Assembly (NCBI GenBank): GCA_964520805.1
Contig: CAZFQH010000001.1
Coordinates: 1-35,079 of the forward strand
Reading direction: 5' to 3'
DNA length: 35,079 nt
DNA from: an uncultured Acidobacteriota bacterium
Lineage (GTDB): Bacteria; Acidobacteriota; Vicinamibacteria; Fen-336; JAGNNV01
Part shown: positions 3-20,551 of the stretch, one piece after another
How positions within the stretch are numbered: position 1 is the stretch's first letter
Layout of the letters: each line of letters begins with the position of its first letter
Notes under the pieces: generated by a model
Database searches by the model: none
The model's input: the letters and a program-made list of their open reading frames with translations, nothing else
Told to the model about the DNA's origin: nothing
Translations under genes and position numbers: made by a program

Positions 3-1706
3 GTGGCGCGGGTGACGACGCGCGGCGGCTCGACGCGCGTGGAGGGGACCGGTCTTGTGGTGAGCGGCGCCGACGAGGTGTTGCTGCTCATAGACGTTCT
101 TCCCGTCTACGAAGAGGACAAGACGCACCACGAGCGCACCCAGGCGCGACTCGCGGCCCTCGCCCCCTCGTACGATTCGCTGCTCGAGCGCCACGCGAAG
201 ATCCATGGCGAGCTCTTCCGCCGGGTCCGGCTCGATCTTGGCGGCGGGGCCGATCGATCGCTCTCAAGCGAGGACCTGATCGGGAAAAGCACCGATGAGG
301 CGGTTTCACCCGCGCTGATCGAAAGGACCTTCGACGCCAGCCGCTACAACATCATCTCGAGCATCGGCGAACTGCCGCCGAACCTGCAGGGAGTCTGGGC
401 GGGCACCTACGATCCGCCTTGGGCGAGTGACTACACGCAGAACGGCAACGTGCAGTCGGCGATCGCCAGCCTCCTGATGGCCCGCACCCCCGAGCTGATG
501 CTGGCCTTCACCTCCTACATCGAATCGCTGGTGCCGTGGATGGAGCTCAATGCGCAAAGGATCTTCGGAGCGCGCGGCATCGTGCTGCCATCGCGCACCA
601 GCACCAACGGCTTCAACAACGCCCTGGCCCCCCGTTTTGCCGGCGGCTTCTGGGTGGCGGGGGCGCCCTGGGCCGCGCACTTCTTCTACGACTACTACCT
701 CCACACCGGCGACCGCCGCTATCTCGTCGAACACGTGATGCCGTTCATGGAGAAGACCGCGCTCTTCTTCGAGGACTACCTGTACGAAGGGAAGGACGGT
801 CGGCTCGTCTTCTCGCCGACCCAGTCGCCCGAAAACACTCCGGGGAACACAAACTCACAGGCAACCTTCAACGCGACCATGGACGTGGCGGCGGCGAAGG
901 AGCTCCTGACCCGACTCGTGGCCCTCTCCCGCGAACTCGGACGGAACCAGGAGAAGGTCAAAGTCTGGGAGCAGATGCTCGCGAAGATGCCGCCGTACAT
1001 CTTGGGGCCCGAGGGCGGCGTCAAGGAGTGGTTGACGCCCCTCCTCGAAGACAACCACGCGCATCGCCACTCGTCGCACCTCTACCCGCTCTATGACGGA
1101 CTGCCGGACGAGATCGCGCGGGATCCGAAGCTCAAGGCGGCCTTCAAGCGGGTGATCGAGCTGAAGCTCGAACGGCACTGGACGGACTGGCAGCGGAGCG
1201 GCGGCTATATGTCGTTCGGTCTCGTCCAGCTCGGGCAGGCGGCCACCAGCCTCGGCGAGGCCGAGCTTGCCTACCGGTCGTTCGCGCCGCTCGTCAACCG
1301 ATACTGGCTGCCCAACATGGCCTCGACCCACAACTACCGAAGCCTGTTCAACATGGACGTGAGCGGCGGATTGCCGGCGGTACTGATCAGGATGCTCGTC
1401 TCCGCCGAGCCCGGCAAGGTGTCGCTTCTCCCGGCGCAACCCAAGGCCTTGCCGCAAGGAAGCATCGAGGGCCTCTTGTGCCGCGGACAGGTCGAGGTGC
1501 GCCGGCTCAACTGGAAGCCGGGTTCGGTCGAAGTGACGCTGGTCTCGTCTCGCGCGCAGCGCCTCGTTCTCGAGGCTCCCCACCCCATTCGAAGCGCGAA
1601 GCTGCGAGACGCGTCGGCGATCCTGGCAGCAGGCGACGCCCCCAACCGGCGCACGCTGACCCTTAAGGCGGGCCAGCCCGCGACGGTCGTCGTGGAGTTC
1701 CAGTGA
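3..1706 (+). CDS. GH95-family alpha-L-fucosidase, 5'-partial (open at window edge)
   Basis: ORF is open to the window edge, with stop TGA at 1704-1706. The translation shows GH95-like catalytic-region strings (NGNVQSAIASLLMA, HRHSSHLYPLYDG, FNMDVSGGLPA) and a C-terminal beta-sandwich tail. The antisense ORFs are compositional artefacts. Confidence 0.85.
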   Translation: MARVTTRGGSTRVEGTGLVVSGADEVLLLIDVLPVYEEDKTHHERTQARLAALAPSYDSLLERHAKIHGELFRRVRLDLGGGADRSLSSEDLIGKSTDEAVSPALIERTFDASRYNIISSIGELPPNLQGVWAGTYDPPWASDYTQNGNVQSAIASLLMARTPELMLAFTSYIESLVPWMELNAQRIFGARGIVLPSRTSTNGFNNALAPRFAGGFWVAGAPWAAHFFYDYYLHTGDRRYLVEHVMPFMEKTALFFEDYLYEGKDGRLVFSPTQSPENTPGNTNSQATFNATMDVAAAKELLTRLVALSRELGRNQEKVKVWEQMLAKMPPYILGPEGGVKEWLTPLLEDNHAHRHSSHLYPLYDGLPDEIARDPKLKAAFKRVIELKLERHWTDWQRSGGYMSFGLVQLGQAATSLGEAELAYRSFAPLVNRYWLPNMASTHNYRSLFNMDVSGGLPAVLIRMLVSAEPGKVSLLPAQPKALPQGSIEGLLCRGQVEVRRLNWKPGSVEVTLVSSRAQRLVLEAPHPIRSAKLRDASAILAAGDAPNRRTLTLKAGQPATVVVEFQ

Positions 1707-4021
1707 TGCGCCCGGCGCGTTCGTTCACCGCCTGTATGGCGCAGACGACGTTGGTGTTTTGCCTGGCCCTGCTAGGGTCCTCTCCGGCCAGGGCCCAGGG
1801 CGCGGTCGCGAGCACGAGCGATCCGTCGCTCGTGACCCTCGAGCGAATCTTCAAGGCGAAGGACTTCCAGCCCGAGCGCTTCGGTCCGGCGCGCTGGCTC
1901 GACGGCGGTTCCTCATACACGACCCTGGAGGCTCCGACCGGAGTGTCCTCGGCCACGGCAGACGGTGGTGGGGTTCGAGAACTGATCCGCTACGACACTC
2001 TGTCTGGCCGCCGCGAGGTGCTCGTCCCGCTCGCGCGCCTGACTCCGTCGGGTGAGACGAAGCCACTCGATATCGCGGACTACTCCTGGTCGGAAGACGG
2101 GAAGCGCCTGCTGATCTTTACGAACACGAAGCGGGTCTGGCGCATCAACAGTCGCGGTGATTACTGGGTGCTGGACCTTCCGGGCGGCGACCTGAGGAAG
2201 CTCGGGCGTGAGGCCGTGCCGTCGACCCTCATGTTCGCGAAGTTCACGCCCGACGGTCGCCGCGTCGGCTACGTGCGCGAGAACGACATCTACGTGGAGG
2301 ACATCGCCGATGGGCGCGTGGTGCGCCTCACCAGCGGCGGCAGTCCCACCCTCATCAACGGCACGTTCGATTGGGTCTACGAAGAGGAGCTCGGGCTGCG
2401 CGACGGTTTCAGGTTCAGCCCGGATGGCCGGCACCTCGCCTTCTGGCAAGTGGACTCCTCGGGCCTCAAGGACTTCACTCTGATCGACAACACCTCGGAA
2501 CTCTATCCGATCCTCACCCGCATCCAGTATCCCAAGGCCGGCGAGACCAACTCCGCGGTTCGGGTCGGGATCGTCTCGGCTGAGGGCGGCGCGCCTCGCT
2601 TTGTTGACGTGCCCGGCGACCCGCGCGAGCAGTACCTCGCGCGCATGGAATGGGCGGGCCCGGGCGAACTGATGCTGCAGCGCCTGAACCGCCTCCAGAA
2701 CACGCTCGACGTGATGCTCGCCGACGCCGCGACCGGCGCGGTGCGCACCATCCTCTCGGAGCAAGACGAGGCCTGGGTGGACGTCGAGGACGACTTCCAA
2801 TGGCTCGACGGTGGCCGCCGGTTTGTGTGGCTCAGCGAGCGCGATGGATGGCGGCGCGCCTACGCTTTCCCGCGCCAGGGCGGCGCGCCGGTGCCGCTGA
2901 CCCCTGCGGGTGTGGACGTGATCCAGCTCCTGAGCGTCGATGAGCGTGGCGGCTTCTTGTACTACATCGCGTCCCCAACCGAGCCGACACGGCGCTACCT
3001 GTTCCGCGCCAGAGTCGACGGCAAGGGCCCGGCCGAGCGCCTGACCCCCGTGGGCGAGCCCGGAACGCACGGTTACCAGATTTCTCCCGACGCGCGCTTC
3101 GCGATCCACAACGTCTCCCGTTTCGAGACGCCGCCCATAACCGACCTCGTGCGCCTGCCTGACCACACGCGGGTGCGGGTGCTTGCGGCTAACGAGCGCC
3201 TGCGCGCGAAGGTGGAGGCCTTGCGCCGTGCGCCCGTCGAGTTCTTCCGCGTCGAGATCGAGAAGGGAGTGGAACTCGACGGCTGGCGGATGAAGCCGCC
3301 CGTGATGGAGCCCGGTAGGCGCTACCCGCTCCTGATTCACGTTTACGGCGAGCCCGCGGCGCAGACCGTACTCGACCGTTGGGGCGGCAATAACTATCTG
3401 TGGCACCAGATGCTCGCTCAGCAAGGCTACGTCGTGGTGAGCGTCGACAACCGTGGCACTCCAGCGCCGCGGGGTCGCGCCTGGCGCAAATCGATCTACC
3501 GGCAGGTCGGCATCCTCGCTTCGCAGGATCAGGCCGCGGCGGTTCGCAAGATGCTGGAGTCGCCGTATCTCGACGCCGCGCGTGTGGGCTCGTGGGGGTG
3601 GAGCGGCGGCGGGCAAATGACCCTGAACGCGCTCTTCCGCCATCCGGAGCTCTACAAGACCGGAATCGCGGTCGCCTTCGTGGCCGATCAGCGCCTGTAC
3701 GACACCATCTATCAGGAACGCTATATGGCGCGTCCTCAGGACAATCCCGAGGGGTATCGGCTCGGCTCGCCGATCACGTTTGCCGACAAGCTTCAGGGCA
3801 ATCTGCTCATTGTGCACGGCACCGGAGACGACAACGTTCACTACCAGAACACGGAGAGACTGGTCAACGCCCTCGTAGCCGCCAACAAGCGCTTCACCAT
3901 GATGGCCTACCCGAACCGCGCGCACGGCATCTCGGAAGGGGAGGGCACGTCGCTCCACCTCTACGATCTGATGACGAGCTTTCTCGAGAAGAACCTACCC
4001 AAAGGCCCGCGGCCGAACTGA
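1706..4021 (+). CDS. Dipeptidyl-peptidase IV-like serine peptidase (S9B: beta-propeller + alpha/beta hydrolase)
   Basis: ATG 1706 overlaps the GH95 stop (TGATG); GTG 1703 is an alternative start. The N-terminus is signal-like. Propeller strings are present (FSPDGRHLAF, QYPKAGETN), as are S9 triad contexts: GWSGGG (Ser), GTGDDNVH (Asp), NRAHGI (His). Confidence 0.85.
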   Translation: MRPARSFTACMAQTTLVFCLALLGSSPARAQGAVASTSDPSLVTLERIFKAKDFQPERFGPARWLDGGSSYTTLEAPTGVSSATADGGGVRELIRYDTLSGRREVLVPLARLTPSGETKPLDIADYSWSEDGKRLLIFTNTKRVWRINSRGDYWVLDLPGGDLRKLGREAVPSTLMFAKFTPDGRRVGYVRENDIYVEDIADGRVVRLTSGGSPTLINGTFDWVYEEELGLRDGFRFSPDGRHLAFWQVDSSGLKDFTLIDNTSELYPILTRIQYPKAGETNSAVRVGIVSAEGGAPRFVDVPGDPREQYLARMEWAGPGELMLQRLNRLQNTLDVMLADAATGAVRTILSEQDEAWVDVEDDFQWLDGGRRFVWLSERDGWRRAYAFPRQGGAPVPLTPAGVDVIQLLSVDERGGFLYYIASPTEPTRRYLFRARVDGKGPAERLTPVGEPGTHGYQISPDARFAIHNVSRFETPPITDLVRLPDHTRVRVLAANERLRAKVEALRRAPVEFFRVEIEKGVELDGWRMKPPVMEPGRRYPLLIHVYGEPAAQTVLDRWGGNNYLWHQMLAQQGYVVVSVDNRGTPAPRGRAWRKSIYRQVGILASQDQAAAVRKMLESPYLDAARVGSWGWSGGGQMTLNALFRHPELYKTGIAVAFVADQRLYDTIYQERYMARPQDNPEGYRLGSPITFADKLQGNLLIVHGTGDDNVHYQNTERLVNALVAANKRFTMMAYPNRAHGISEGEGTSLHLYDLMTSFLEKNLPKGPRPN

Positions 4022-4031: not shown

Positions 4032-4068
4032 GGCGCGCCCCGCCCGAGGTTCAGCGCGCGGGCGCGCC
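4032..4068. terminator. Possible bidirectional hairpin between convergent genes
   Basis: GGCGCGCCC (4032-4040) is the reverse complement of GGGCGCGCC (4060-4068), with a 19-nt loop. The 3' arm lies inside the end of the minus-strand CDS and there is no U-tract. Confidence 0.3.
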
Positions 4069-6138
4069 GGTGATTCGGACCTCCACCTTTGTGTTCGCGG
4101 TTTTTTCGAGCCACACCAGCAGGTCGGTGCCCTGCAACGTCTGCCTTCGTCCGAGCCGCAAGCCCGGACCTTCATCCAGCCGTCGACCGTCGACCGAGAC
4201 CGCGGCGGCCCCGTCCCCGAAGCCCTCGATCACCACGAGCGCGTTGGCGAGCGGCTGGGCCTCGCTCGCCGCGATCTCGATGGCCAGATCGCCACAGCCC
4301 TGACCAGACGAGCAGCGCAGCGTGTACGCCCGCTGGCCGATGTCGTAGCCGCGGCTTTGCGCCTCGCCGCTCACCACTTTGAGCTCAGGCGCCCGGTTCC
4401 ACGAGCGGGCGAGAGGCACGAGGGATTCCGGAGCGCCGAAGGTCGCCCCGTAGAGCAGCGCCACCCATGAATATCCATTTCCCTCATCGTGCTCGGGGGG
4501 GTAGTTCTGGGAGATCGACCAGCTGGTGGTGCGGTCGGCGGCCTGAACGAAGCGGCCGTCCGAGCGCACCAGACTCTCCGGCCAGTGGTTGTAGGCCGGG
4601 AAATTCTTCACTTCGTCCCGCACCCGGCCTACGTAGACGCGCGGCTTGGTGCCCGGTTCGTAGATCACGAAGGGCCGCGCCTGCGCGCGCATGTTAACCA
4701 CCTGGATGACCGGCGTTTCCGGCTTGAGGTCGCGCACCATGCTCGGGTCGACCGCCAGGTTGCGCCGGTCGCGCGTGCTGACACTCTGGTCGTCGGGCCA
4801 GGAGTAGGTGGCGCTGCGACCGTCGAGATCCACGTAGGTGAGCGCGTCGTTGCGCAGCACGTCTTTCGCGTTCTGACCGGGATGCGCGAGGACGCTGGTC
4901 TCCTGAATCTGGAGCCACGGGAACGCCCGCGAGGCTTCGGGCCGGCGCCAGCGAACCTTGCGCACGCCCGTGCCGTCGGGCAGAAAGGTGTAGTACTCGT
5001 CCACCCACCAGGCGAAACCGCTGCGTTCGTTCGCGGTCCAGTTGTTGTCGTGCCCGCTCACCGGCGCGTAGCGCCAATGCACCACCACGCGCGCCTCGGT
5101 GCTCTCGACGATTCGGACCGACGAGTACGTCGTGTGAATGTCCTGCATGTGTTCAACGCAGCCCTCGTGGTTGCCGCTCTCCATGCTCTGATCGGCGAGC
5201 CACAGGCCGTTTTCGGTGACCCAGGCGGGCGAGTACCGCAGGCCGCGCCAGAAGACCACCCGCACCGGAGAGCCGTCGAACTGAACCACGATGTCGGCGT
5301 GGTCGGACACCGGCCAGAGCGCATCCCAGTCTTCGTAGTAGCGCAGCTTCGTGTAGTAAGCGCCGAAGCGCCCAGGGCCCGCGGGCCCCGAGGGCAGCAC
5401 GCGCTCGGGGAGGTCGGGCTTGATGGACGCCTGCGGCCGACGTGCCTCGCGCGCGAGCTCTTCAGGGTCGAGCGCTCGGTCGAAGAGGCGGACCTCGTCG
5501 AGGATCCCGTCGAGCGAAAACCACGATGGCAGGGTGCCCTCGGCCGGAGGCACTGGATGAGACGGCATGACCTTTGTCCGGTTGGCTCCGAGCACGAGGT
5601 CCTGCTCGGGAGCCGTCTTGAGCGCTCCAGGTGTTTCGAGACGCCCCGCTTCAACCCCGTTCACATACAGGCGGACACCCTCGTTCTCGCGAAAGACCGC
5701 GGCGACATGGGTGAAGCGCCGCAGCGGCAGGGCCTGGGCCGATTCGACCGAAACCCATCGCCCGCCCACCGAAAGGCGCAAGCCGAGTTCGCCCCGCGGC
5801 CCGACGCCGAAGAAGTAGCCGGCTTCGCCGTCCTCCTCCTGGGCCACGATCGGACACCAGTTCCAGGGGTAGGCGGCGAGAGCGATCCACCCGTCCACGC
5901 TGAACGTCGAAGCGATCCGTGGCGCCTCCGCGGCTTTTTGGGAGACATGCGTGGTGTAACCGTCCAGGCGCAGCGCACGGCCGGACACGCCCTCGACCAG
6001 CTTGAAGCCGCCTGCCACCGATTCGGTCGACTCAAAGCGCCAATGAGCCAGGGGCGGCCCCTCGGCAGCCAGCGATGCGCCGGGCGCGCTGGTGATCGTC
6101 AGCAACAGTGCGGTGAGACCGCGCAGGTCAAGGGTCAT
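4051..6138 (-). CDS. Secreted LamG/concanavalin-like domain protein with uncharacterised ~450-aa C-terminal beta-rich module (paralog 1)
   Basis: I chose ATG 6138 because it is preceded by GGAGGAG (revcomp of 6142-6148) and starts a signal peptide (MTLDLRGLTALLLTITSAPGASLAAEG). The longer track ORF (to 6447) would overlap the AraC gene. The protein is a full-length paralog of 17666-19801. Confidence 0.8.
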   Translation of the reverse strand: MTLDLRGLTALLLTITSAPGASLAAEGPPLAHWRFESTESVAGGFKLVEGVSGRALRLDGYTTHVSQKAAEAPRIASTFSVDGWIALAAYPWNWCPIVAQEEDGEAGYFFGVGPRGELGLRLSVGGRWVSVESAQALPLRRFTHVAAVFRENEGVRLYVNGVEAGRLETPGALKTAPEQDLVLGANRTKVMPSHPVPPAEGTLPSWFSLDGILDEVRLFDRALDPEELAREARRPQASIKPDLPERVLPSGPAGPGRFGAYYTKLRYYEDWDALWPVSDHADIVVQFDGSPVRVVFWRGLRYSPAWVTENGLWLADQSMESGNHEGCVEHMQDIHTTYSSVRIVESTEARVVVHWRYAPVSGHDNNWTANERSGFAWWVDEYYTFLPDGTGVRKVRWRRPEASRAFPWLQIQETSVLAHPGQNAKDVLRNDALTYVDLDGRSATYSWPDDQSVSTRDRRNLAVDPSMVRDLKPETPVIQVVNMRAQARPFVIYEPGTKPRVYVGRVRDEVKNFPAYNHWPESLVRSDGRFVQAADRTTSWSISQNYPPEHDEGNGYSWVALLYGATFGAPESLVPLARSWNRAPELKVVSGEAQSRGYDIGQRAYTLRCSSGQGCGDLAIEIAASEAQPLANALVVIEGFGDGAAAVSVDGRRLDEGPGLRLGRRQTLQGTDLLVWLEKTANTKVEVRITGAPAR

Positions 6139-6170
6139 GGCTCTCCTCCGTTTCCATTTTGCTTTTTGAT

Positions 6171-7088
6171 TCATTGTGTCCCGATTCTTTGCGGAAGCGA
6201 CAGGTGGGAATCGTCGAAGGTCTCGCGAAAGTTGCGGGGCGAGACGCCGAACACGTTCTTGAAGGCGCGTGAAAAATGGAACGCGTCCCGGAAGAGAAGC
6301 TCGGCCGCGACCTGCTTCACGGTGTGACCTGGATCTTCGAGCAGCTTCGCTGCCCGGTTCATCCGAAGCCGGGTCAGGAATTCGTAGGGCGTCTGGCGGT
6401 CGTAGCGTTGAAACAACCGGCAGAGATAGGCCTCGCTCACGTGACACTCGCGCGCGGTTTCACCGAGTTGGGTCAGCCGCACGTGGTGTTCCTCGATGTG
6501 CTGCCGGCAACGCAGATAGGTGGAGAACGCGGCGGTGTGATCCTCGTGGCCCGGCGAGAGCGCCGCGGCGATCCGCAACATCAGGTAGTGGAGGCGCGCG
6601 CTCGCGAGTTCGTTCGCCATGGCGCCACCCCGCGAGCCGTCGTGCACGAGGTCGTCGAACGCGCGCTGGATGTCGGCCGGACTGTCCACATGGCACCAGG
6701 CACCCTGGGCGAGCCGGCAATCGAGCAACATACGAGTCGCATCGGCGCCCACGAAGTCCACGAAATACTTGCTGGGCGGGTCATCGCGATTGGCGGCGAT
6801 TCGGTGTGGAGTTCTGGGCCCATAACAGAAGACGAGGCCGGGCCGGAGCGCAACGTCCTGCCCGGCGATCTGAAGACTGCCCCGGCCCGAGGCCACGAAC
6901 TCGAGGCCGAGGTAGGGGAAGTTCGCGCGGTCGATGAGGTAGTCGGGATGACATCGCTCGAAGCCGCCGCAAACGACGGCCAGAGACGCCTCCGCGGGGG
7001 GTGCGAGGTCAAGATAGAACGAGCGGACGTACTTCACCTGGCGCGAAAAAAACGCCGGTTGCGACCTTTCCCGCTCTCTCTGCTCCAA
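6171..7088 (-). CDS. AraC/XylS-family transcriptional regulator (cupin-like sensor + C-terminal HTH)
   Basis: TTG start at 7088, preceded by GGAAGGAG. The C-terminus carries AraC-type HTH strings (ECHVSEAYLCRLFQRY, FRDAFHFSRAFKNVFGVSP). The gene is divergent from the TBDR operon and co-directional with 4051-6138, from which it is separated by a 32-nt gap. Confidence 0.85.
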   Translation of the reverse strand: MEQRERERSQPAFFSRQVKYVRSFYLDLAPPAEASLAVVCGGFERCHPDYLIDRANFPYLGLEFVASGRGSLQIAGQDVALRPGLVFCYGPRTPHRIAANRDDPPSKYFVDFVGADATRMLLDCRLAQGAWCHVDSPADIQRAFDDLVHDGSRGGAMANELASARLHYLMLRIAAALSPGHEDHTAAFSTYLRCRQHIEEHHVRLTQLGETARECHVSEAYLCRLFQRYDRQTPYEFLTRLRMNRAAKLLEDPGHTVKQVAAELLFRDAFHFSRAFKNVFGVSPRNFRETFDDSHLSLPQRIGTQ

Positions 7089-7347: not shown

Positions 7348-7372
7348 GTTGTCTGAGGGAGACAACTTTTTT
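7348..7372 (+). terminator. Leader hairpin + T6 (terminator/attenuator-like) in the TBDR 5' leader
   Basis: GTTGTCT (7348-7354) pairs with AGACAAC (7360-7366) around a 5-nt loop and is followed directly by TTTTTT (7367-7372), 40 nt before the ATG. A weaker equivalent (4-bp stem + T7) is at 24383-24408. Confidence 0.35.
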
Positions 7373-7411
7373 CGACGGACGATCAAGTCCAACCAGACGG
7401 AGGGTACTTAT

Positions 7412-10400
7412 ATGAAGTTCACGAAATCCTGGCGCCTCGCGATTGTGGCTGGCCTGATGGCCACCGTGAGTGTGGCGCAGGCGCGAATCGATGGGACGAT
7501 CGAGGGAAGGGTTCTGGACAGCCAGGGCCTCGCCGTGCCCGGCGCGACCGTGACGGTTTCGAGTCCCGCCCTCATCCAGACCGCGGTCGTCGTCACCGGT
7601 GCCGAGGGTCGCTATCGCGCGACACGGCTGCCGCGAGGCGTCTACTCCGTGCGGGTCACGATGGACGGCTTCAGGACCCGCGAGCTCACCGGCATCGTGC
7701 TTTCGGTTGGCAAGGTGCTAGTCATCGACCCCACGATCGAACCGGGCGGAACCACGGAGTCGGTCACGGTCGAGGCCGAAACGCCGGTGATCGACACGCA
7801 GCAGGTGAAGAACGTGCAGACGATCACGAGCGAGGTGATCGATCAGGTGCCCCTGAGCCGCAACCCGATCCTCGGCCCAACGCAACTGGCTCCCGGAGTG
7901 GTCGAGCGCACGTCTTCCGGATCGAGGCGCAACGAGACAAACTTTACGGTTGATGGCGCCAACGTGCAGGCCCCGGATCAGGGCTACTCGGAAGCGAACG
8001 TGAGCTGGGACGCGGTCGAGGAAATCGAGTTCATCACCACTGCCAATCCGATGGAAAACTACGGCGCGATCGGAGGCACGCTCAACCTCGTGACCCGGAC
8101 CGGCAGCAACAAGATGCAGGGCATGGCGTCGTACTACTTCACGAACCGCGGGCTGTCGCAGGTCCTGTTGCCGCAAGAACACTCGAACACGCTCCGGATC
8201 GGACAGCCGAGCCTCGCCGAGTACGAACGCGACCTGTCGCTACGTCTGTCGGGTCCCCTGCGCAAAGACCGGCTCTGGTTTGTCGTGAACTACCGTCTCT
8301 TCAAGGACGAGAAGGCCGGCACCTTCGTGCCGGCGACGATCAACGGAAAGCAGTTCGACAACTACGCGGCGCCGCTCGACCAAAAGTGGTACTTCGGCAA
8401 GCTCACCGCCCAGATTACTCCGAAGGTCCGCTGGTTCGGCAGCTACACCTACTCGGCGGGCGACGCGCCGCAGGAGCTCGCCTCGGCGCCGCCTCGCCGA
8501 ACGCTTGAAGCCACAAGGCACTGGGCGGCCAAGCAGCACACGGCATCGAGCCAGCTGACCTGGACGCTCTCGCCACGGACGCTTCTCGACGCGCGCTTCG
8601 GGATCTGGCGCTTCAAATACGACGGCACCTCCCAGGACGGGACCGAAGCGAATCCAGCCTACTTCGACGAGTTCAGCGGTTATCAGTACGGGCGCTGGAG
8701 CGGGGGCCGCGACGGCACCGACAAGCGCAACTACAACGCCTCGGCGGCGGTCACCCACTTCCTAGACAACTGGGGCGGCTCTCACGAGCTCAAGGCGGGC
8801 ATTGAGTACCAGAAGCTCAATGGCGGTTTCTACTTCTCGAGCGAGAACTCGATCGGCGAGTGGCGCACCTACCGCGACAACATCTACTACTACCGCGGCC
8901 TGCTCGGCCTTAGCGGTCCCGACCCGGTGCGCGGCGACGGCCTCCTGACCTTCCTGACCGCCTCCACCGAGGAACTCGGCAGCGGCGTACCCAGTCTGTT
9001 CGCGCGCTCTGGAGGCTTCGTTTCGGACGTGTGGCGAATCAACAGCCGTCTCACTTTGAACCTCGGTCTGCGGTACGACTCGACCAAGTCCCGAATCGAC
9101 GATGTCACCAAACCCGCCGCCGACCCGCTGGCGCAGGCGATCGGTCAGGCGGTATTCGTGCCGCGCTTTGGCATCAACCCCTTCGGTGCGCTCAGCTCTG
9201 CCGGTCAGGACAACCGGATTCCGTGGAGCGGCTTCTCTGGTCAGGTGGGAGCGGCCTTTGACCTGACGGGCGACCGAAAGACGATCCTCAAGGCCAGCGC
9301 TTCGAGTTACCAGGAACGACTGCTCGGCTGGCACGTCAATTTCGGCGTGCCGAGCGGACAGGCCAGCTTCCCGATGAACTGGTTCGACCTGAACGGCAAC
9401 GGCAGGCCCGATCTGCCGGGCACCGACCGCTACGTCCAGGCCAACAACGCGAGCCCCATCGCCTTGCAGGGCACGACCTGGCATCAGAACGTGGACCCGA
9501 ATCTCAAGACGCCCTACGTGCTCGAATACCGCCTCGGCATCGAGCGACAGATCGGCGGTTTCAATGTGGGCGTGGCCGGCATGTACCGCGATCGCAAGAA
9601 CCTGATGACCTCCCTTCTCTACGATCTCAACAGCAAATCGTATTGGAGCGACGCCAGCTCGGGCTATTGGGTTCCGTTCACCACCACCGTCCCGGCCGCG
9701 GGCACCAGCTTCCCGGCCACGCCGACGACGGTCTATTTCCAGAAGACGAACTCCCCGGCCGCATTCACAAGGATCACGAACATTGACGCGAAGGCGCGCT
9801 ACCAGGCGCTCGAAGTGACGACGAACAAGCGCTGGAACGGTCGCTACATGGTGGGTGGGTCGGTCGTGTTCTCGAAGAACTACGGCAACTATGAAGTCTG
9901 GGGAAATAACAACGGTCTCGGGCAGTTCCAGACCCCGAACTACGCCGTCAATCGCGGCGACTCGCGCGAGCCTTTCGACCGTCCCGTCGTGGTCAAGCTG
10001 TTTGGCAGCGTGAAGATGCCGGCCGAGGTGCGCATGTCTTATAACTTCTTCTACACCGACGGCGCGCCCTGGAACCGGACGGTGACCGTTCAGCCCCCGG
10101 CCGCGTGGGCCGCCGCGAACGGCGTCTCAACCGCGAGCCAGACGATCTGGGTCGAGCCGCGGGGCAATCGGCGCGACCAGGCGATCACCAACCTTGACCT
10201 CCGGCTCGAGAAACTGTTCCGTATCTCCGGCCGCCACGAGCTCGGCGTTTTCATTGACGCCTTCAACGTAACCGGCTTCTCCTATCTCACGTTCCAATCC
10301 AATCCCGGTGGAACCTGGTCCCCGACCGATGTGGGCGTGACCACCGGCACCTTCAGCCCGGCGTCCACCAGCGCGCTCAGTCAGACCGGCGTTCGAACGT

Positions 10401-10432
10401 TCCGTCTGTCGGTTCGGTATAACTTCAACTAG
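7412..10432 (+). CDS. TonB-dependent outer-membrane receptor with N-terminal carboxypeptidase-regulatory-like domain (intact, 1006 aa)
   Basis: ATG 7412 follows GGAGGG (7398-7403). Signal peptide MKFTKSWRLAIVAGLMATVSVAQA. The CarboxypepD_reg-like segment reads GRVLDSQGLAVPGATVTVSS...GRYRATRLPRGVYSVRV, and plug and barrel strings follow. The C-terminus (RLSVRYNFN) ends in an aromatic-type residue. Confidence 0.9.
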   Translation: MKFTKSWRLAIVAGLMATVSVAQARIDGTIEGRVLDSQGLAVPGATVTVSSPALIQTAVVVTGAEGRYRATRLPRGVYSVRVTMDGFRTRELTGIVLSVGKVLVIDPTIEPGGTTESVTVEAETPVIDTQQVKNVQTITSEVIDQVPLSRNPILGPTQLAPGVVERTSSGSRRNETNFTVDGANVQAPDQGYSEANVSWDAVEEIEFITTANPMENYGAIGGTLNLVTRTGSNKMQGMASYYFTNRGLSQVLLPQEHSNTLRIGQPSLAEYERDLSLRLSGPLRKDRLWFVVNYRLFKDEKAGTFVPATINGKQFDNYAAPLDQKWYFGKLTAQITPKVRWFGSYTYSAGDAPQELASAPPRRTLEATRHWAAKQHTASSQLTWTLSPRTLLDARFGIWRFKYDGTSQDGTEANPAYFDEFSGYQYGRWSGGRDGTDKRNYNASAAVTHFLDNWGGSHELKAGIEYQKLNGGFYFSSENSIGEWRTYRDNIYYYRGLLGLSGPDPVRGDGLLTFLTASTEELGSGVPSLFARSGGFVSDVWRINSRLTLNLGLRYDSTKSRIDDVTKPAADPLAQAIGQAVFVPRFGINPFGALSSAGQDNRIPWSGFSGQVGAAFDLTGDRKTILKASASSYQERLLGWHVNFGVPSGQASFPMNWFDLNGNGRPDLPGTDRYVQANNASPIALQGTTWHQNVDPNLKTPYVLEYRLGIERQIGGFNVGVAGMYRDRKNLMTSLLYDLNSKSYWSDASSGYWVPFTTTVPAAGTSFPATPTTVYFQKTNSPAAFTRITNIDAKARYQALEVTTNKRWNGRYMVGGSVVFSKNYGNYEVWGNNNGLGQFQTPNYAVNRGDSREPFDRPVVVKLFGSVKMPAEVRMSYNFFYTDGAPWNRTVTVQPPAAWAAANGVSTASQTIWVEPRGNRRDQAITNLDLRLEKLFRISGRHELGVFIDAFNVTGFSYLTFQSNPGGTWSPTDVGVTTGTFSPASTSALSQTGVRTFRLSVRYNFN

Positions 10433-10452
10433 CGGGTGAAGCCCAGGGCCGT

Positions 10453-10478
10453 GGACGGCTCCGCTTGTGGAGCCGTCC
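10453..10478 (+). promoter_or_regulatory. Intercistronic perfect 10-bp GC-rich stem-loop (possible attenuator or mRNA-stability element)
   Basis: GGACGGCTCC (10453-10462), loop GCTTGT, GGAGCCGTCC (10469-10478). It lies 21 nt after the TBDR stop and 40 nt before the next start. There is no U-tract. Confidence 0.5.
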
Positions 10479-10518
10479 GCGTCCGCCGACCGTGGGCCGA
10501 GTGCCTGAGGGACCCCGT

Positions 10519-11379
10519 ATGCTCCGCTCGATGCGACTCGACGCCCATCAGCATTTCTGGCGTTACGACCCGGCGCATCATGCGTGGATGACGGACGCGA
10601 TGGGTACTTTGAAGCAGGATTACCTTCCTGAAGACCTGGCCCCGCTCCTTCAGGCGACTGGATTCGAGCGAACGATCGCAGTGCAGGCGCGCCAGATGAC
10701 CGAAGAAACCGAATGGCTGCTCGCTCTCGCCGACCAGCACACGTTCATCCACGGCGTCGTGGGCTGGGTGGACCTGCGTTCGCCCGACCTTGGGGCGCAG
10801 CTCAGAAGGTTCGGCGCGAACCCGAAGCTTGTGGGCGTACGCCACGTGGTCCACGACGAACCCGACGAAGACTTCATGCGGCGGCCCGATTTCCGTCGCG
10901 GGATCGCGCGCCTCGCGGACGCCGGTCTCACCTACGATCTGCTGCTGCGTCCCCCGCACCTCAAGGCGGCGATCCTCCTGGTCGATGAGTTCAAACACCA
11001 GCCCTTCGTGCTCGATCACATCGCCAAGCCCGGGGTCGGGGAAGCGTCGGTCTCGCCCTGGAAGGAGGATGTGTGTCGTCTTGCCGAACGACCGAACGTG
11101 TTCTGCAAACTCTCCGGCCTCGTCACGGAGGCCGATTGGAACGGGTGGCGGCCCGACGACTTCCGGCCAGCCCTTGATGTCGTGTTCGAGGCGTTTGGTG
11201 CCGAACGACTGATGATCGGCTCCGATTGGCCGGTCTGTACGCTGGCCGCGGACTATGCGACCACGATGGGTGTCGTGATGGATTTTGTGCACGACCTTAA
11301 AGCGTCAGAGCAGGCCTCCATCCTGGGTGGGAACTGTGCGCGCTTCTACGGCCTGACCCAGATCGAGGAGGCTGCATGA
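10519..11379 (+). CDS. Amidohydrolase-2 family sugar lactonase (L-fucono-1,5-lactonase-like)
   Basis: ATG 10519 follows GAGGGA. The strings RLDAHQHFW, CKLSGLVTEADW and GSDWPVC match my recollection of the COG3618 lactonase group that includes L-fucono-1,5-lactonase. Confidence 0.75.
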   Translation: MLRSMRLDAHQHFWRYDPAHHAWMTDAMGTLKQDYLPEDLAPLLQATGFERTIAVQARQMTEETEWLLALADQHTFIHGVVGWVDLRSPDLGAQLRRFGANPKLVGVRHVVHDEPDEDFMRRPDFRRGIARLADAGLTYDLLLRPPHLKAAILLVDEFKHQPFVLDHIAKPGVGEASVSPWKEDVCRLAERPNVFCKLSGLVTEADWNGWRPDDFRPALDVVFEAFGAERLMIGSDWPVCTLAADYATTMGVVMDFVHDLKASEQASILGGNCARFYGLTQIEEAA

Positions 11380-12467
11380 GCCGGATGCTTACCGCCGTGT
11401 TGCACGGACCGCGGGACTTGCGCGTCGAGGAGCGCCCGATCCCGGAGCTCGAGCCCGGCATGGTGCTCGTGCGGGTTCGTCGGCTTGGCCTCTGCGGCAC
11501 CGACGTTCACTACTTTGAGGAGGGGCGGGTGGGAGCCTTCGTGGCCTCGGCGCCCTTCGTGCTGGGCCATGAGTTGTGCGGCGAGGTGGCGGCCGTAGCA
11601 GATGGGGTCCAACGGCCGAGGGTGGGCGACCGCGTGGTCGTGAATCCGGCCCGACAATGCGGGCAGTGTGAGTTCTGTCGGGCGGGTCGCGGCAACTTGT
11701 GCCTCAACATCCGGATGTTGGGTAGCGCCAGCACGCGTCCTCCGACGGACGGCGGTATGGCCGAGTACCTGAAGGTCGGGGCGGAGCAGTGCTACGTGAT
11801 GCCCCCGCAGATGGACGACGGTATCGGCGCCCTCATGGAGCCTCTGGCGGTGGCGCTTCAGGCCCTTCACCGGGCCGGTTCAGTCGCCGGCCGTCGTGTG
11901 CTCGTGTGTGGAGGCGGCCCCATCGGCCTTCTGATCGCGCTCACCGCACGCGCGTTTGGCGCTTCGACCGTGGCCCTCACCGACCCAGTGCCCGAGCGCC
12001 GGGAGCTGGCCCTCGCGATGGGCGCCGACGTGGCCTTCGAGGCCCTGTCCGCTGATCTCCCCAATCAGGGCGTGTTGCCGATCGGAGCCGGGATCGACGA
12101 GGGGTTCGAAGTGCTGTTCGAAGCCTCGGGCGCCGGGGCCGCGACCGAGCAGGCGTTCGAGCTCGCGCGGCGCGGCGCGACCATCGTTCAGGTCGGCTCG
12201 CCCCTGGAGGCGCGAACGCCGCTTCCGCTCCGGCAGTTGCTCGTGAAGGAGCTGCAGTTTGTGGGATCGTTCCGTTACGGGAACGTCTGGGAACAGGCGA
12301 TCCGCCTCGGGGCCTCTGGACGGCTGAACCTGAAGCCCCTCATCACCCACGTGCTGCCGTTCACTCAGGCGCGCGAGGCGCTGGAGCTGGCGGCGGCGCG
12401 GGGGGCTGCCCTGAAGGTTCAAATCGATATCGGTTCAAGGAATCAGGGAGGTATGGACCACCCATGA
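11376..12467 (+). CDS. Zn-dependent medium-chain dehydrogenase/reductase (sorbitol / L-idonate dehydrogenase-like)
   Basis: ATGA start/stop overlap with the upstream gene; GAGGAGG Shine-Dalgarno (SD). Catalytic Zn context CGTDVH...GHE, structural Zn cluster CGQCEFCRAGRGNLC, and Rossmann motif GGGPIG. Confidence 0.85.
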   Translation: MSRMLTAVLHGPRDLRVEERPIPELEPGMVLVRVRRLGLCGTDVHYFEEGRVGAFVASAPFVLGHELCGEVAAVADGVQRPRVGDRVVVNPARQCGQCEFCRAGRGNLCLNIRMLGSASTRPPTDGGMAEYLKVGAEQCYVMPPQMDDGIGALMEPLAVALQALHRAGSVAGRRVLVCGGGPIGLLIALTARAFGASTVALTDPVPERRELALAMGADVAFEALSADLPNQGVLPIGAGIDEGFEVLFEASGAGAATEQAFELARRGATIVQVGSPLEARTPLPLRQLLVKELQFVGSFRYGNVWEQAIRLGASGRLNLKPLITHVLPFTQAREALELAAARGAALKVQIDIGSRNQGGMDHP

Positions 12468-13444
12468 ATACGGCGACCGAAGTCGCTCCGCGAACGAGCA
12501 CCGCCCTTCAGTACCGTCCGCTCGGCGCTACGGGGATCAACGTCTCCAGCCTGAGTTTCGGGGCCTCCTCCCTCGGCGGGGTCTTTCGCGAAGTCCACGA
12601 GGCCGAAGGCATCGCCGCGGTCCACACCGCGCTGGATCTCGGCATCAACTACTTCGACGTCGCGCCGGCCTACGGCGGCACGCGAGCGGAGACCGTGCTC
12701 GGTCGGGCCCTTCGTGGCGTGCCCCGCGACCGGTTCTATATCTCGACCAAGGTCGGGAAGTACACGAGCCCGACGAGCTACGGCGAGGACCATTTTGACT
12801 ACTCGCGCGAGCGGATCCGCGCTTCCCTCGACGAGAGTGCCTCTCGCCTGGGAGTCGACTACTTCGACATCGTGCACCTGCACGACATCGAGTACCAGGG
12901 TCGTCGCCATGTGGAATGGGCTCTTCGCGAGGGGATCGAGGCGCTGCAGGAACTGCGGCGGGAGGGCCGGATCGGCGCCATCAGCTTCGGCATCCACCCG
13001 ATGGACCTGTGGCGCCGTGTACTTGCGGACTGCGACGTGCAGGCCGCCCTCGTCCACAACCACTACTGCCTGAACGACACGCGGCTGCTGGAGCTCCTGG
13101 CCGTGGCGACCGCGCGCAGGATCGGGATCATCAACGGCTCTCCGTTCGCAAGCGGCCTGTTGACCGATCGCGGGCCGGCGGCCTGGCACCCCGCAGGCGA
13201 GCCCGACCGCGCGCTGTTTCGGCGCGCCGCCGAGCACTGTGCCAGTCGTGGCACGAGCATCAGTCAGCTTGCGCTCCAGTTCGCAAGCCAGCATCCGCAG
13301 ATTCCGACCACGCTCTTCAGCTCGGCGAGCGCCGAGTCGGTTCGCCGCAACGTCGCCTGGCACACTCAGCCGGCAGATCCCGAGATCGTGGCCGAAGTCA
13401 TGGAGATTCTGCGCCCGGTGCGCGATAAAGACTGGAACTACTGA
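12464..13444 (+). CDS. Aldo-keto reductase (L-fucose / L-galactose 1-dehydrogenase-like)
   Basis: ATGA overlap with the upstream stop. AKR strings are present (LGATGINVSSLSFGAS, GINYFDVAPAYGG, HLHDIE). It sits next to a lactonase, as expected for sugar 1-oxidation. Confidence 0.8.
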   Translation: MNTATEVAPRTSTALQYRPLGATGINVSSLSFGASSLGGVFREVHEAEGIAAVHTALDLGINYFDVAPAYGGTRAETVLGRALRGVPRDRFYISTKVGKYTSPTSYGEDHFDYSRERIRASLDESASRLGVDYFDIVHLHDIEYQGRRHVEWALREGIEALQELRREGRIGAISFGIHPMDLWRRVLADCDVQAALVHNHYCLNDTRLLELLAVATARRIGIINGSPFASGLLTDRGPAAWHPAGEPDRALFRRAAEHCASRGTSISQLALQFASQHPQIPTTLFSSASAESVRRNVAWHTQPADPEIVAEVMEILRPVRDKDWNY

Positions 13445-13465
13445 AGTGATGTGAGGGAGGCGAGC

Positions 13466-15025
13466 GTGAGCAAAAGAAACTGGCGGCTCTTGGTGGCCCT
13501 GGGCTTGTCGGCGTGTGCGCTCGCTTCCGCGCCGGGATCCGTGGCCGCTGGTTCGGGCGCGCCCCCGCGGCCTCCAAACGTCGTTTTCATCCTCGCCGAC
13601 GATCTGGGTTACGGCGACATTGGAGCCAACAACCCTCAGTCCCGGATTCCCACGCCGCACATCGACCGCATCGCGCGCGAGGGGATGCGCTTTACCGACG
13701 CCCACTCTCCGGCTGCCGTGTGCACACCGAGCCGCTACGGCATCCTCACCGGACGCTACGCGTGGCGGACCTGGCTGAAGCAGGGCGTGGTCGGGGGCTA
13801 TACGCCGCCGCTGATCGAGCCCGACCGGCCCACCGTCGCATCATTCCTCAAGCAAAACGGCTATACCACCGCGATGATCGGCAAGTGGCATCTCGGTCTC
13901 GGCTGGGTCCGCGCGAACGGTTTCGTGGGAACCGCGGCGAACGCCGAGCAAAACGTCGCCGGGTCATGGCAGGACGGCGAGGCCGCAAAGGGCATGAATG
14001 TGGATTTCGATAAGCCGGTCAAGGGCGGCCCGCGGGACCTGGGCTTTGACTACGCCTACTTCACCGCGGCCTGTCCGACGATGGACGGTCCCTTCACGTT
14101 CATTCGGAACGATCGCCCGACCGCGCGACCCGACCGGAAGATCTTCATCGACCCAAAGGCCGAGGAGGAGTACGGCCGCCCTCGGCCTGGGTGGATCGCA
14201 CCCGGCTTCTCGCTCGAAACCGTGGATATCGAGTTTGTGAACGAGGCGATCTCGTTCATGCGGCGCAGTGTCGCCGAGCAACCGGGGCGCCCTTTTTTCG
14301 TTCACTTGTCCTTGTCTTCGCCTCACACCCCCTGGCTCGTTCCGACCTTTGCCCAGGGTGCTAGCGAAGATGGGCCGCGCGGGGACCTCGTCACCGTCGC
14401 GGACTGGGCGGTGGGAGAAGTAAGGGCAGCGCTTGATCGACTCGGGGTGTCCGGCGATACGCTGCTCATCTTTACGAGCGACAACGGCCCGCACCCAGGC
14501 ATCGATGAACATGCCTCCGCCGGCGCCTTCCGCGGGTACAAGTCGCACACCTGGGAAGGAGGTCATCGCGTCCCCTTGGTCGCGCGCTGGCCGGGCCACA
14601 TTCCTGAAGGTGTCCTAAGCCCCGAGCCCGTCGAGCTCACCGACCTCATGGGCACTCTTGCCGGCGTTCTCGGCCGGGATCTGCCGAAGGACGCCGGACC
14701 CGACAGCTACGACATCTCGCCCGCGCTCTTCGGCCAGCGGCTGGGACGGCCGATCCGCGAGGCGATCGTCTCGCACTCCGTCAACGGCGCGTTCGCGATC
14801 CGCCAGGGCCCGTGGAAGCTGATCCTCGGGACCGACGGATCGGGCGGCTGGGTCCCTCCGGCCGACAAAGCAGCGAGCCCCGACCGTCCCGGCCAGCTCT
14901 ACAACCTCGATACGGATCCGGGTGAGCAGAAAAACCTCTACGCCGACCGTCCCGAGGTCACTGCGCGTCTGCGCGATCTTCTCGCCTCCTATCGGGCGAG
15001 CGGGCGCAGCCGACCGCAGCGGTAG
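13466..15025 (+). CDS. S1-family (arylsulfatase A-type) sulfatase, Cys-type
   Basis: I chose GTG 13466 because GGGAGG lies 6 nt upstream; the track start is 13451. A signal peptide is present. Strings include NVVFILADDLGYGD, the formylglycine motif CTPSR, and GKWHLG. Confidence 0.9.
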   Translation: MSKRNWRLLVALGLSACALASAPGSVAAGSGAPPRPPNVVFILADDLGYGDIGANNPQSRIPTPHIDRIAREGMRFTDAHSPAAVCTPSRYGILTGRYAWRTWLKQGVVGGYTPPLIEPDRPTVASFLKQNGYTTAMIGKWHLGLGWVRANGFVGTAANAEQNVAGSWQDGEAAKGMNVDFDKPVKGGPRDLGFDYAYFTAACPTMDGPFTFIRNDRPTARPDRKIFIDPKAEEEYGRPRPGWIAPGFSLETVDIEFVNEAISFMRRSVAEQPGRPFFVHLSLSSPHTPWLVPTFAQGASEDGPRGDLVTVADWAVGEVRAALDRLGVSGDTLLIFTSDNGPHPGIDEHASAGAFRGYKSHTWEGGHRVPLVARWPGHIPEGVLSPEPVELTDLMGTLAGVLGRDLPKDAGPDSYDISPALFGQRLGRPIREAIVSHSVNGAFAIRQGPWKLILGTDGSGGWVPPADKAASPDRPGQLYNLDTDPGEQKNLYADRPEVTARLRDLLASYRASGRSRPQR

Positions 15026-15062: not shown

Positions 15063-15191
15063 GGGTCACCTATCGCGATGGATTCCTAAACGCACGATTC
15101 ACACCTTTCCCGAAAACAACTCATTAGGCACATTCTTGAGAATCCAAACGATCGGCCTTGATCAAGGAGGGGTCAGAAAAAGGCATGCATT
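15063..15191 (+). repeat. Degenerate third copy of the TBDR upstream region (5' ~130 bp only)
   Basis: GGTCACCTATCGCGATGGA (15063-15081) matches GGTCATGAATCGCGATGGA (7110-7128). GGTCAGAAAAAGGCATGCATTG (15170-15191) matches GGTCAATAAAAGACATGCAATG (7216-7237). The spacing between the two landmarks is about the same as in copy 1. Confidence 0.55.
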
Positions 15192-15468
15192 GAGCCCCGA
15201 GGCGACCGCCGCGACCAGTCCACCAGCAACCTGGATATCCGCCTTGAGCAGCTCGTCCGTCTTGCGAGCCGCCACGAGATCGGGTATTCGTCGATGCGTT
15301 CAACGCGACCGGCTTCTCGTACCTGAACTATCAGTCGAACCCGGGAGGCACCTGGGCACCGACTAACATCAATGCGATCACGGGCACTTACAGCCCGGCG
15401 TCAACCGGCGCCCGCAGTCAGGTGGGCGTGCGGACCCTCCGGTTCGGCGTTCGCTACAGTTTCAACTA
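15191..15468 (+). pseudogene. TonB-dependent receptor remnant (last ~90 codons only, with a 1-nt frameshift near 15281-15283)
   Basis: Translates as EPRGDRRDQSTSNLDIRLEQLVRLASRHEIG / VFVDAFNATGFSYLNYQSNPGGTWAPT...VGVRTLRFGVRYSFN*, collinear with the C-terminus of 7412-10432 (EPRGNRRDQAITNLDLRLEKLF...GVFIDAFNVTGFSYLTFQSNPGGTW...RYNFN*). There is no start codon or barrel upstream. Confidence 0.8.
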
Positions 15469-15828
15469 ACTCCCGGCAAACCCCTGTGCTCCTCAGATGA
15501 GGCGGCAAACCAGTGGCTGGGCTCTGACGGAGGAAACCAGTGATGGAACGGTATTCGGTCAACCTCGGTTCGCGTGGAAGGTGTTCCCCCCCAAGCGGTT
15601 GGTCCTATTGGCCAACCGCGCCGACCGGGCTCTCTTCGCTTCGTCGCGTTGCGCTCGCTGCTAGTTCGAGCGAGGCATTGGCAGCGTAACTTGCGTCCAC
15701 CCAGGCGGGGTCCGTCTCGGCGTAGACCGTCGTGATGCCGCCGCCCTTCAGGCTCACGATCAGGAAGGCGCGGCCGTCGCGGCCGCGCGAAAGCCGCTCG
15801 ACCAGCACCTCGTCGGGTCCCGCGAAGC

Positions 15829-20523: not shown

Positions 20524-20543
20524 TAAGGGGACTGTGTCCAGAC

Positions 20544-20551
20544 TTGTATAC
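20544..20551. promoter_or_regulatory. TTGTATAC half-perfect GntR/FadR-type operator in the divergent GntR/ABC intergenic region
   Basis: Lies between the GntR start (20523) and the permease start (20629), in a low-GC stretch. It matches the palindromes in both TBDR promoters. Confidence 0.4.

Follow-up and report, generated by a model that had tools for sequence, protein, structure and literature searches.

We describe here a gene from a 35,079-nucleotide (nt) stretch of DNA of an uncultured Acidobacteriota bacterium (contig CAZFQH010000001.1, positions 1 to 35,079; hereafter the window), which lies at 4051..6138 on the minus strand and encodes a 695-amino-acid (aa) protein with an N-terminal LamG domain (paralogue 1). 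We put the probability at roughly 55% that this protein is a secreted, probably periplasmic, glycan-cleaving enzyme of an undescribed family, set apart from known families through comparisons with Pfam, NCBIfam, and PDB. On solid grounds, the family is large, conserved, uncharacterised, and associated with glycan-utilisation loci, and it is probably catalytic, judging from conservation patterns and gene context. A more tentative proposal is that the LamG domain and the supersandwich-like domain behind it together found a new family of carbohydrate-active enzymes. Its active site would lie in the supersandwich, and its targets would be sulfated glycans of L-fucose, L-galactose, or rhamnose, or proline-rich sulfated glycoproteins of algae or plants. 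The gene is laid out as follows:

4051..6138, minus strand: complete coding sequence of paralogue 1, 695 aa plus stop (open minus frame; homologue lengths agree)
6067..6138, minus strand: putative Sec signal peptide, aa 1-24, with cleavage between ASLA and AE (sequence features)
5449..6051, minus strand: LamG/concanavalin-like jelly roll, aa ~30-230 (Pfam, PDB sequence, Foldseek, AlphaFold2)
4393..5376, minus strand: central domain, large and all-beta, aa ~255-582, put forward as the catalytic module (AlphaFold2 predicted local distance difference test score, pLDDT, mostly >85)
4939..5376, minus strand: conservation hot core within that domain, aa 255-400, with motifs FWRGxRYxPxW, DQSxE, GCxEHMxD, HWRY, DEY, and PDxxxxR
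4054..4392, minus strand: C-terminal small beta-sandwich, aa 583-695 (AlphaFold2 strands 586-691, pLDDT >90)

Conservation is concentrated in the first part of the central domain. Across 43 aligned sequences, 41 of the 146 positions in aa 255-400 are invariant (28%), compared with 4% in the C-terminal sandwich and 8% in both the LamG domain and aa 401-582. The invariant set includes 21 charged or polar residues (six Arg, two His, three Tyr, nine Asp/Glu/Gln, and one Ser), namely Y262, D282, R298, R301, Y302, D316, Q317, E320, E329, H330, and D333, followed by S339, R342, R350, H354, R356, Y357, D380, E381, D388, and R393. Most of these (19/21) are also invariant among 29 sequences from several phyla at 42-64% identity, and the other two (Y262 and S339) are conserved in >90%. 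Conservation focused in this manner would favour a catalytic over a binding module.

Relatives of this module are numerous. In a word-indexed search with aa 235-695, the clusters at 90% identity numbered at least 1461, every one of them annotated as 'LamG domain-containing' or 'hypothetical', and HMMER run exhaustively over 1.84 billion representatives yielded 1165 clusters at 50% identity with E values up to 1e-3 (673 at up to 1e-10, and 266 at up to 1e-30). When one genome per species is counted, 337 loci encode a relative, and the hosts belong to Acidobacteriota (Vicinamibacteria, Aminicenantes, Saccharicenans), Bacteroidota, Planctomycetota, and Verrucomicrobiota. The best 80 of the 337 loci are all from metagenome-assembled genomes (MAGs); the nearest relatives (86-94% identical) come from Vicinamibacteria or Acidobacteriota MAGs, pointing to a similar origin for the window. 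Seventeen longer relatives (842-1795 aa) were scanned with Pfam. The only partner domains were LamG, F5/8 type C, NPCBM, Calx-beta, PKD, fn3, Big_2, and one dockerin, and no recognised catalytic domain was found among them. This resembles the usual layout of a catalytic module with accessory binding or spacer modules, which would favour a catalytic role for the shared module.

An AlphaFold2 model of the full-length protein, built from the 43-sequence alignment, had a pLDDT of 87.9 and a predicted template-modelling score (pTM) of 0.87. The protein is modelled as almost wholly beta, with the LamG domain leading through two short linker helices to a large beta domain and then a small beta-sandwich, and the model suggests that these three domains (LamG, supersandwich-like, and small sandwich) are rigidly packed. 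LamG domains are found fused to glycosidases and toxins (e.g., clostridial neurotoxin Hc and sialidase NanB), and that of paralogue 1 is likewise genuinely concanavalin-like. Unlike in those fusions, it is well conserved itself and stands directly ahead of the module in 15 of the 17 longer relatives. The high full-length pTM (0.87) suggests that LamG and the module form an integrated unit rather than the module carrying a loosely tethered binding domain.

As Foldseek matches to the full model were dominated by LamG, aa 240-695 were modelled separately (pLDDT 88.2, pTM 0.91). The best PDB matches to this second model were galactose-mutarotase-like supersandwiches (E = 3.6e-6 to 5e-4, probability ~1.0), including the C-terminal region of a glycoside hydrolase (GH) family 38 mannosidase (2wyi, E = 3.6e-6), the mutarotase GalM (1l7j, E = 8.5e-5), and LacZ (E ~1e-4), while Foldseek against the viral structure library BFVD gave nothing meaningful. 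Like the supersandwiches of GalM, LacZ/GH2, and GH38, the central domain is large (~330 residues) and nearly all beta; unlike them, it shares only template-modelling (TM) scores of 0.3-0.4 and 7-10% identity with these structures, and it lacks a Pfam match. A galactose-mutarotase-like supersandwich fold is thus probable for aa ~255-582 at the level of fold class rather than of family membership, because TM scores were 0.3-0.41 (superposition at the same-fold level being taken as about ≥0.5), identities were 7-10%, and alignment with the GalM profile had a probability of 0.1%.

Polysaccharide lyase (PL) family 4 and the GH186 OpgG/OpgD beta-1,2-glucanases provide a precedent for a glycan-cleaving active site in this fold class. 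PL4 rhamnogalacturonan lyases and OpgG/OpgD are generally known to share a comparable layout, in which a big supersandwich is followed by an immunoglobulin- or carbohydrate-binding-module-like beta-sandwich. They differ from paralogue 1 in that they carry no LamG domain and have no motif demonstrated in common with it. Both are absent from the top 50 Foldseek matches, and their Pfam models were unmatched by single sequences and by 29 family members at E values up to 10.

Sequence searches agree with the original prediction that the ~455 residues beyond LamG are a separate module without an assignable family. No confident match of the C-terminal 450 aa to a characterised family was found in Pfam, NCBIfam, or PDB (sequence and profile searches). 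For aa 240-695, Pfam gave no match, either in paralogue 1 or in the 29 family members scanned at E values up to 10, and NCBIfam gave none at E values up to 1. A single-sequence query of PDB sequences returned only a LamG protein and nothing for aa 240-695, and a 29-sequence profile of the C-terminal module returned nothing. The Pfam models of the supersandwich clan (Aldose_epim, Bgal_small_N, Glyco_hydro_38C, MdoG, RhgB_N, Lyase_8, and others) were unmatched by the same 29 members at E values up to 10. Similarly, Pfam, NCBIfam, and PDB sequences (single and profile) revealed no similarity to established GH, PL, or carbohydrate esterase families of CAZy, a comparison that extends to families with a Pfam or NCBIfam model or a solved structure and may pass over very recent ones. 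Candidate identities were rejected on related grounds. A formylglycine-dependent S1 sulfatase was dismissed since paralogue 1 has no match to the Sulfatase Pfam model, whose domain carries the C/S-x-P-x-R motif (the model does match the neighbouring products of 13451-15025 and 27308-29170, at 2e-50 and 4e-58, respectively), and a duplicate of the GH95-like N-terminal domain was ruled out by the lack of a Glyco_hyd_65N_2 match. A tblastn search of the PLSDB plasmids, seeking a link to fucoidan megaplasmids, produced no match. The literature searched, which covered LamG alongside fucoidan or sulfatase loci, new GH/PL families, supersandwich lyases, and PL43, contained no description of the family. 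The new families in a 2026 preprint on polysaccharide-utilisation-locus screening are GH140-like, GH36-like, or alginate lyases, and nothing connects them to paralogue 1.

A number of these results weigh against an enzymatic role. The fold match is weak (TM 0.3-0.41, root-mean-square deviation 9-16 Å, identity 7-10%), and paralogue 1 carries no catalytic motif of the families known to Pfam and NCBIfam. In GH2 and GH38, the matching supersandwich domains have an accessory and not a catalytic role, and by our reading the GH38 C-terminal region and LacZ probably align with the model through such domains. The named members that we saw are all of MAG or metagenome origin, 'LamG domain-containing' or 'hypothetical', and without functional names, and the best 150 matches of the representative search, the portion that was covered, are all family members. 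The main alternative, given that the best-matching folds appear to be accessory domains, is a non-catalytic protein whose three domains are all binding modules and which holds oligosaccharides in the periplasm or presents them to sulfatases, GH95, or a transporter. The LamG domain, a typical lectin fold, would suit this role. We nonetheless consider it unlikely: binding modules seldom have 28% invariant positions with 21 polar residues across sequences from several phyla that are only 42-50% identical, and the long relatives decorate the module with known binding modules and a dockerin while offering no other candidate for catalysis. A carbohydrate-binding fold lacking a conserved pocket had been named at the outset as an outcome that would count against an enzyme. 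The first half of that description partly applies, as the fold often serves as a non-catalytic accessory domain in glycosidases; the domain nevertheless carries a dense block of invariant polar residues, which might form a pocket.

Gene neighbourhoods, both in the window and in other genomes, also bear on an enzymatic role. The glycan-related genes surrounding paralogue 1 are:

3..4021, plus strand: convergent pair of GH95, truncated at the window start, and a dipeptidyl peptidase IV (DPP-IV)-type S9 peptidase (Pfam)
1703-4021, plus strand: the DPP-IV-type S9 peptidase gene of that pair, adjoining paralogue 1
7349..15025, plus strand: divergent operon of TonB-type receptor, Amidohydro_2 lactonase, Zn-dehydrogenase, aldo-keto reductase, and sulfatase (Pfam)
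10465-13444, plus strand: sugar-oxidation trio within that operon (Amidohydro_2 lactonase, Zn-dehydrogenase, and aldo-keto reductase)
17666..19801, minus strand: paralogue 2, 711 aa, 45% identical to paralogue 1 over its full length

Neighbours were counted in two ways. A census of families within two genes on either side (28 loci, 92 neighbours) was led by sulfatases (12/92), followed by iron-dependent alcohol dehydrogenase (Fe-ADH), GH95, ROK, GH29, GH78, GH106, and M24 aminopeptidase P. In a second census, based on local tblastn and 47 loci of ≥15 kb, zinc-dependent alcohol dehydrogenases (Zn-ADH) were found at 28 loci, sulfatases at 23, and GH95 at 22, along with Fe-ADH, SSF transporters, and TonB-type receptors (20 each), PfkB kinases (16), and, counted within 10 kb, X-Pro peptidases (16). 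The order in a Saccharicenans locus is illustrative: TonB-type receptor, ROK, SSF, PfkB, Fe-ADH, family member, Zn-ADH, DPP-IV, GH95, ornithine cyclodeaminase/mu-crystallin, and SDH_alpha. Synteny of GH95 and DPP-IV is common to Vicinamibacteria-like and Aminicenantes loci, and the pair adjoins family members in loci L082, L023, and L001 as well as in the window. A neighbourhood of sulfatase, GH95, TonB-type receptor, and X-Pro peptidase genes would favour a catalytic over a binding module. It should be weighed against the makeup of the neighbour census, which is weighted toward Acidobacteriota, draws on phylogenetically dependent loci, and is without a background control.

The duplication history of the family may be read in a similar way. 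The second paralogue that had been noted in the window is indeed present at 17666-19801 on the minus strand (711 aa, 45% identical). Paralogues 1 and 2 represent two old subfamilies that co-occur in related genomes too, and three tandem copies stand in one operon in each of two Aminicenantes-type loci (L001, 10001-17584; L083, 10001-16603). A Zn-dehydrogenase gene separates one of the tandem copies from the others in L001. One triplet is flanked by sulfatases, with a radical-SAM/SPASM gene nearby, and the other by GH78. Co-occurring subfamilies and tandem triplets fit the pattern typical of enzyme families diverging in specificity.

As for the substrate, the GH95, sulfatase, lactonase, Zn-dehydrogenase, and aldo-keto reductase genes at the locus point to sulfated oligosaccharides with alpha-L-fucose or alpha-L-galactose, or in some lineages rhamnose. 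The sugar-oxidation trio had previously been labelled as fucose oxidation, which is plausible but not the sole reading. The best NCBIfam match of the lactonase is L-fucono-1,5-lactonase, although at 295 bits it falls below the 400-bit cut-off, and the dehydrogenase is closest to L-idonate 5-dehydrogenase, also below the curated cut-off. With matches that are sub-threshold or to another sugar, an L-galactose-type route is equally possible. The combination of aldo-keto reductase, Amidohydro_2 lactonase, and Zn-dehydrogenase is also similar to the pathway for L-galactose known from Bacteroides vulgatus, and the sugar handled by the trio may hence be L-galactose rather than L-fucose.

X-Pro exopeptidases (DPP-IV-type S9 and M24 aminopeptidase P) recur beside family members (e.g., L023, 12345-14621 and 17459-20004; L083, 20463-21845), as do an ornithine cyclodeaminase/mu-crystallin gene and an SDH_alpha-like gene. 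The recurrence of the exopeptidases and of ornithine cyclodeaminase/mu-crystallin hints that the substrate, instead of being purely polysaccharide, is perhaps a glycoprotein rich in proline or hydroxyproline. Taken further, paralogue 1 could be a glycopeptidase or O-glycan-releasing enzyme whose target is the peptide, or its link to the glycan, in a proline-rich sulfated glycoprotein. Of the 47 long loci, 16 have an X-Pro exopeptidase within 10 kb, a DPP-IV-type S9 peptidase directly adjoins paralogue 1, and the ornithine cyclodeaminase/mu-crystallin gene follows in several loci. We judge this very improbable, however, as two thirds of the long loci are without X-Pro peptidases, many Bacteroidota and Planctomycetota loci have purely glycosidase contexts (GH10, GH2, GH78, and GH106), and neither Pfam nor NCBIfam detects a peptidase motif or family match.

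The residues and neighbours are also open to a reading as a polysaccharide lyase, cutting beside a uronic acid in a sulfated fucose or rhamnose glycan, with His/Tyr as base and acid and with Arg/Gln neutralising the carboxylate. The invariant set is rich in such residues (R298, R301, Y302, Q317, H330, H354, R356, and Y357), PL4 lyases use a supersandwich as their catalytic domain, and PfkB kinases (possibly 2-keto-3-deoxygluconate kinases) and dehydrogenases are frequent neighbours. Yet the 25 neighbour families that occur most often include no unsaturated-uronyl hydrolase (GH88/GH105) or KduI/KduD-type gene, Pfam yields no match to a PL4 or other lyase model, and the invariant Asp/Glu pairs suit a hydrolase equally well. 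On balance, a lyase appears rather improbable, somewhat more so than a binding protein.

The Foldseek list likewise raises a periplasmic sugar mutarotase or epimerase, which might, for example, act between the inverting GH95 and uptake by interconverting the anomers of the L-fucose or L-galactose that GH95 sets free. GalM 1l7j is among the matches (E = 8.5e-5, TM on target 0.38-0.41), and paralogue 2 appears to be co-transcribed with a monosaccharide-type ABC binding protein. Mutarotase identity was nevertheless rejected, as hhalign of our A3 profile against Escherichia coli GalM gave a probability of 0.1% and the Aldose_epim model was unmatched. Moreover, we take the order and spacing of the invariant His/Asp/Glu residues to be unlike those of the GalM catalytic set, and a secreted LamG protein of 700 aa, with relatives that carry binding modules and a dockerin, better suits an enzyme active on polymers. 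Any such activity therefore seems highly unlikely.

If paralogue 1 is a glycan-cleaving enzyme, as we favour, the middle domain (aa ~255-582) would be its catalytic module. R298, R301, R342, R350, R356, and R393 may bind the sulfate or carboxylate groups of an anionic glycan, while D316, E320, E329, H330, D333, H354, Y357, D380, and E381 would perform the chemistry, and the LamG domain and C-terminal sandwich could help to hold the glycan chain. Its substrates would be oligosaccharides or glycopeptides entering via the TonB-type receptor. Together with the sulfatases and GH95, it may free a 6-deoxy-L-hexose or a sugar of L-galactose type, which would then be taken up and oxidised. Our default guess for the mode of bond breaking is hydrolysis. 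One further speculation, applied to both paralogues, is a low-level 'sentinel' enzyme that makes the inducer. The idea arises because both appear to be transcribed with a regulator, and paralogue 1 is not transcribed with the divergent operon.

The setting, with sulfatases and fucosidases, is like that of the known fucoidan and sulfated-fucan enzymes (the endo-fucanases of GH107, GH168, GH174, GH187, and GH141; the fucoidan lyase FdlA/PL43), whose folds are (beta/alpha)8 barrels and beta-helices. Unlike those enzymes, paralogue 1 has no sequence match to solved structures or to Pfam or NCBIfam models, and no paper linking a LamG-plus-supersandwich protein to fucoidan or sulfated-fucan activities was found in the literature searched. 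Besides the paralogues, no endo-acting enzyme was recognised in the locus by a Pfam scan of the window. Of the carbon stored in soils and the sea, sulfated glycans rich in fucose and rhamnose count among the most recalcitrant pools, and only some of the enzymes able to open them are known. The hosts of the family belong to phyla that are abundant in soils and sediments and poorly cultured, and sulfatase and fucosidase genes neighbour the family in about half of the longer loci. If the new-family reading is true, paralogue 1 and its relatives would provide the step of depolymerisation that is missing from sulfated-glycan loci in uncultured Acidobacteriota, Planctomycetota, Verrucomicrobiota, and Bacteroidota from soils and sediments. 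An enzyme would also add a new catalytic scaffold to the catalogue of carbohydrate-active enzymes and improve the annotation of many MAGs whose genes are now labelled only 'LamG domain-containing protein'. Were it a binding protein, it would still be a conserved and hitherto unrecognised component of glycan-utilisation loci.

The gene model itself is straightforward. Paralogue 1, for which the original prediction named no strand, was placed on the minus strand because that frame is open, running from the ATG at 6138 to the stop at 4051-4053 (695 aa), whereas a plus-strand reading of 4051-6138 is ruled out by an in-frame stop codon. The closest homologues are of matching length (694-696 aa, 86-90% identity). 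Upstream lie:

6143..6149, minus strand: Shine-Dalgarno sequence GGAGGAG, 4 nt ahead of the ATG (read from sequence)
6171..7088, minus strand: AraC-family regulator, directly upstream of and co-directional with paralogue 1 (Pfam HTH_18, HTH_AraC, AraC_binding)

The regulator assignment is based on HTH_18 (4e-23) and AraC_binding (2e-8) matches to the 6171-7088 product. The placement of paralogue 1 in the original prediction, 32 nt downstream of this gene, co-directional, and with its own Shine-Dalgarno sequence, proved exact: the AraC TGA ends at 6171, leaving a gap of 32 nt (6139-6170) that includes the GGAGGAG at 6143-6149. No terminator-like site was found on the strand of paralogue 1 in the scanned region, which included this gap.

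Other elements of the prediction were borne out by the translation, including a signal-peptide-like N-terminus (MTLDLRGLTALLLTITSAPGASLA followed by AE) on a 695-aa product and the motifs ALRLDG, FSVDGWIALAAYPWNW, and SLDGILDEVRLF. The segment MTLDLRGLTALLLTITSAPGASLA, with cleavage ahead of AE, resembles signal peptides of Sec type I. The region is not conserved among homologues, and pLDDT falls below 50 at aa 1-4 and 17-25 of the full-length model. The N-terminal domain is a bona fide member of the Laminin_G_3/concanavalin A-like group. Laminin_G_3 (PF13385) matches aa 62-229 (E = 1.2e-21; 77.8 bits against a cut-off of 27.6) and is the sole Pfam match in the whole 695-aa protein, ending at aa 229 in line with a jelly roll restricted to the first ~230 residues. 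PDB 4qvs matches the domain by sequence (E = 0.0024), the AlphaFold2 strands span 31-219 with pLDDT >90, and Foldseek with the full model retrieved clostridial neurotoxin binding (Hc) domains, one subdomain of which is a jelly roll (E = 3e-11). LamG motifs conserved in the family are DGFTT, AAYPWNWCPI, and LPSWFSLDGILDEV.

The AraC gene is, as had been proposed, divergent from the operon of TonB-type receptor, lactonase, dehydrogenase, and sulfatase genes assigned by Pfam, and this arrangement is kept in an orthologous locus that is 87% identical (L082). That locus retains the pair of AraC gene and family member, the divergent operon, and the convergent DPP-IV and GH95 genes. A shared regulon of paralogue 1 and the divergent operon is putative, being suggested by adjacency and conserved synteny only. 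On the other side, 29 nt lie between the convergent stop codons of paralogue 1 and the DPP-IV gene. A PemK/RHH toxin-antitoxin pair is inserted between the family member and DPP-IV in L082 (12105-12649), and the window is without it. Paralogue 2 is downstream of a GntR regulator (19795-20610) and upstream of Peripla_BP_4 (16677-17669), a periplasmic monosaccharide-type ABC binding protein whose permease and ATPase genes are divergent.

Additional observations concern other genes of the window and a further locus. In a Thermoguttaceae (Planctomycetota) locus (L062, 11338-16899), the family member is followed by DUF6288+HEAT, a SASA-like esterase, and GHL15, and then by a sulfatase; DUF6288+HEAT, the SASA-like esterase, and the GHL15 'hypothetical glycosyl hydrolase' are further uncharacterised candidates. 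A second TonB-type receptor in the window (24384-27292, plus strand) is split into two frames near 25340, frame 3 encoding residues 1-304 and frame 2 residues 379-1027 (the open reading frames 24441-25511 and 25508-27295 overlap by 4 nt), so that the gene is a pseudogene or else the split reflects a sequencing frameshift. The interval from the sulfatase gene to the paralogue-2 operon contains a frameshifted remnant of a TonB-type receptor (15186-15466, plus strand; the C-terminal ~95 residues) and a GH95 remnant (15811-16581, minus strand; residues 34-290 of an 829-aa orthologue in L033), which together resemble the trace of a deletion or recombination event, or of an assembly join, between two paralogous loci. 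Lastly, the gene directly after the second sulfatase gene (29243-31561, minus strand) encodes a 772-aa protein with multihaem cytochrome c motifs (Paired_CXXCH_1, Cytochrome_C7, and Cytochrom_C552) and C-terminal TPR repeats, and it is unrelated to the surrounding glycan genes.

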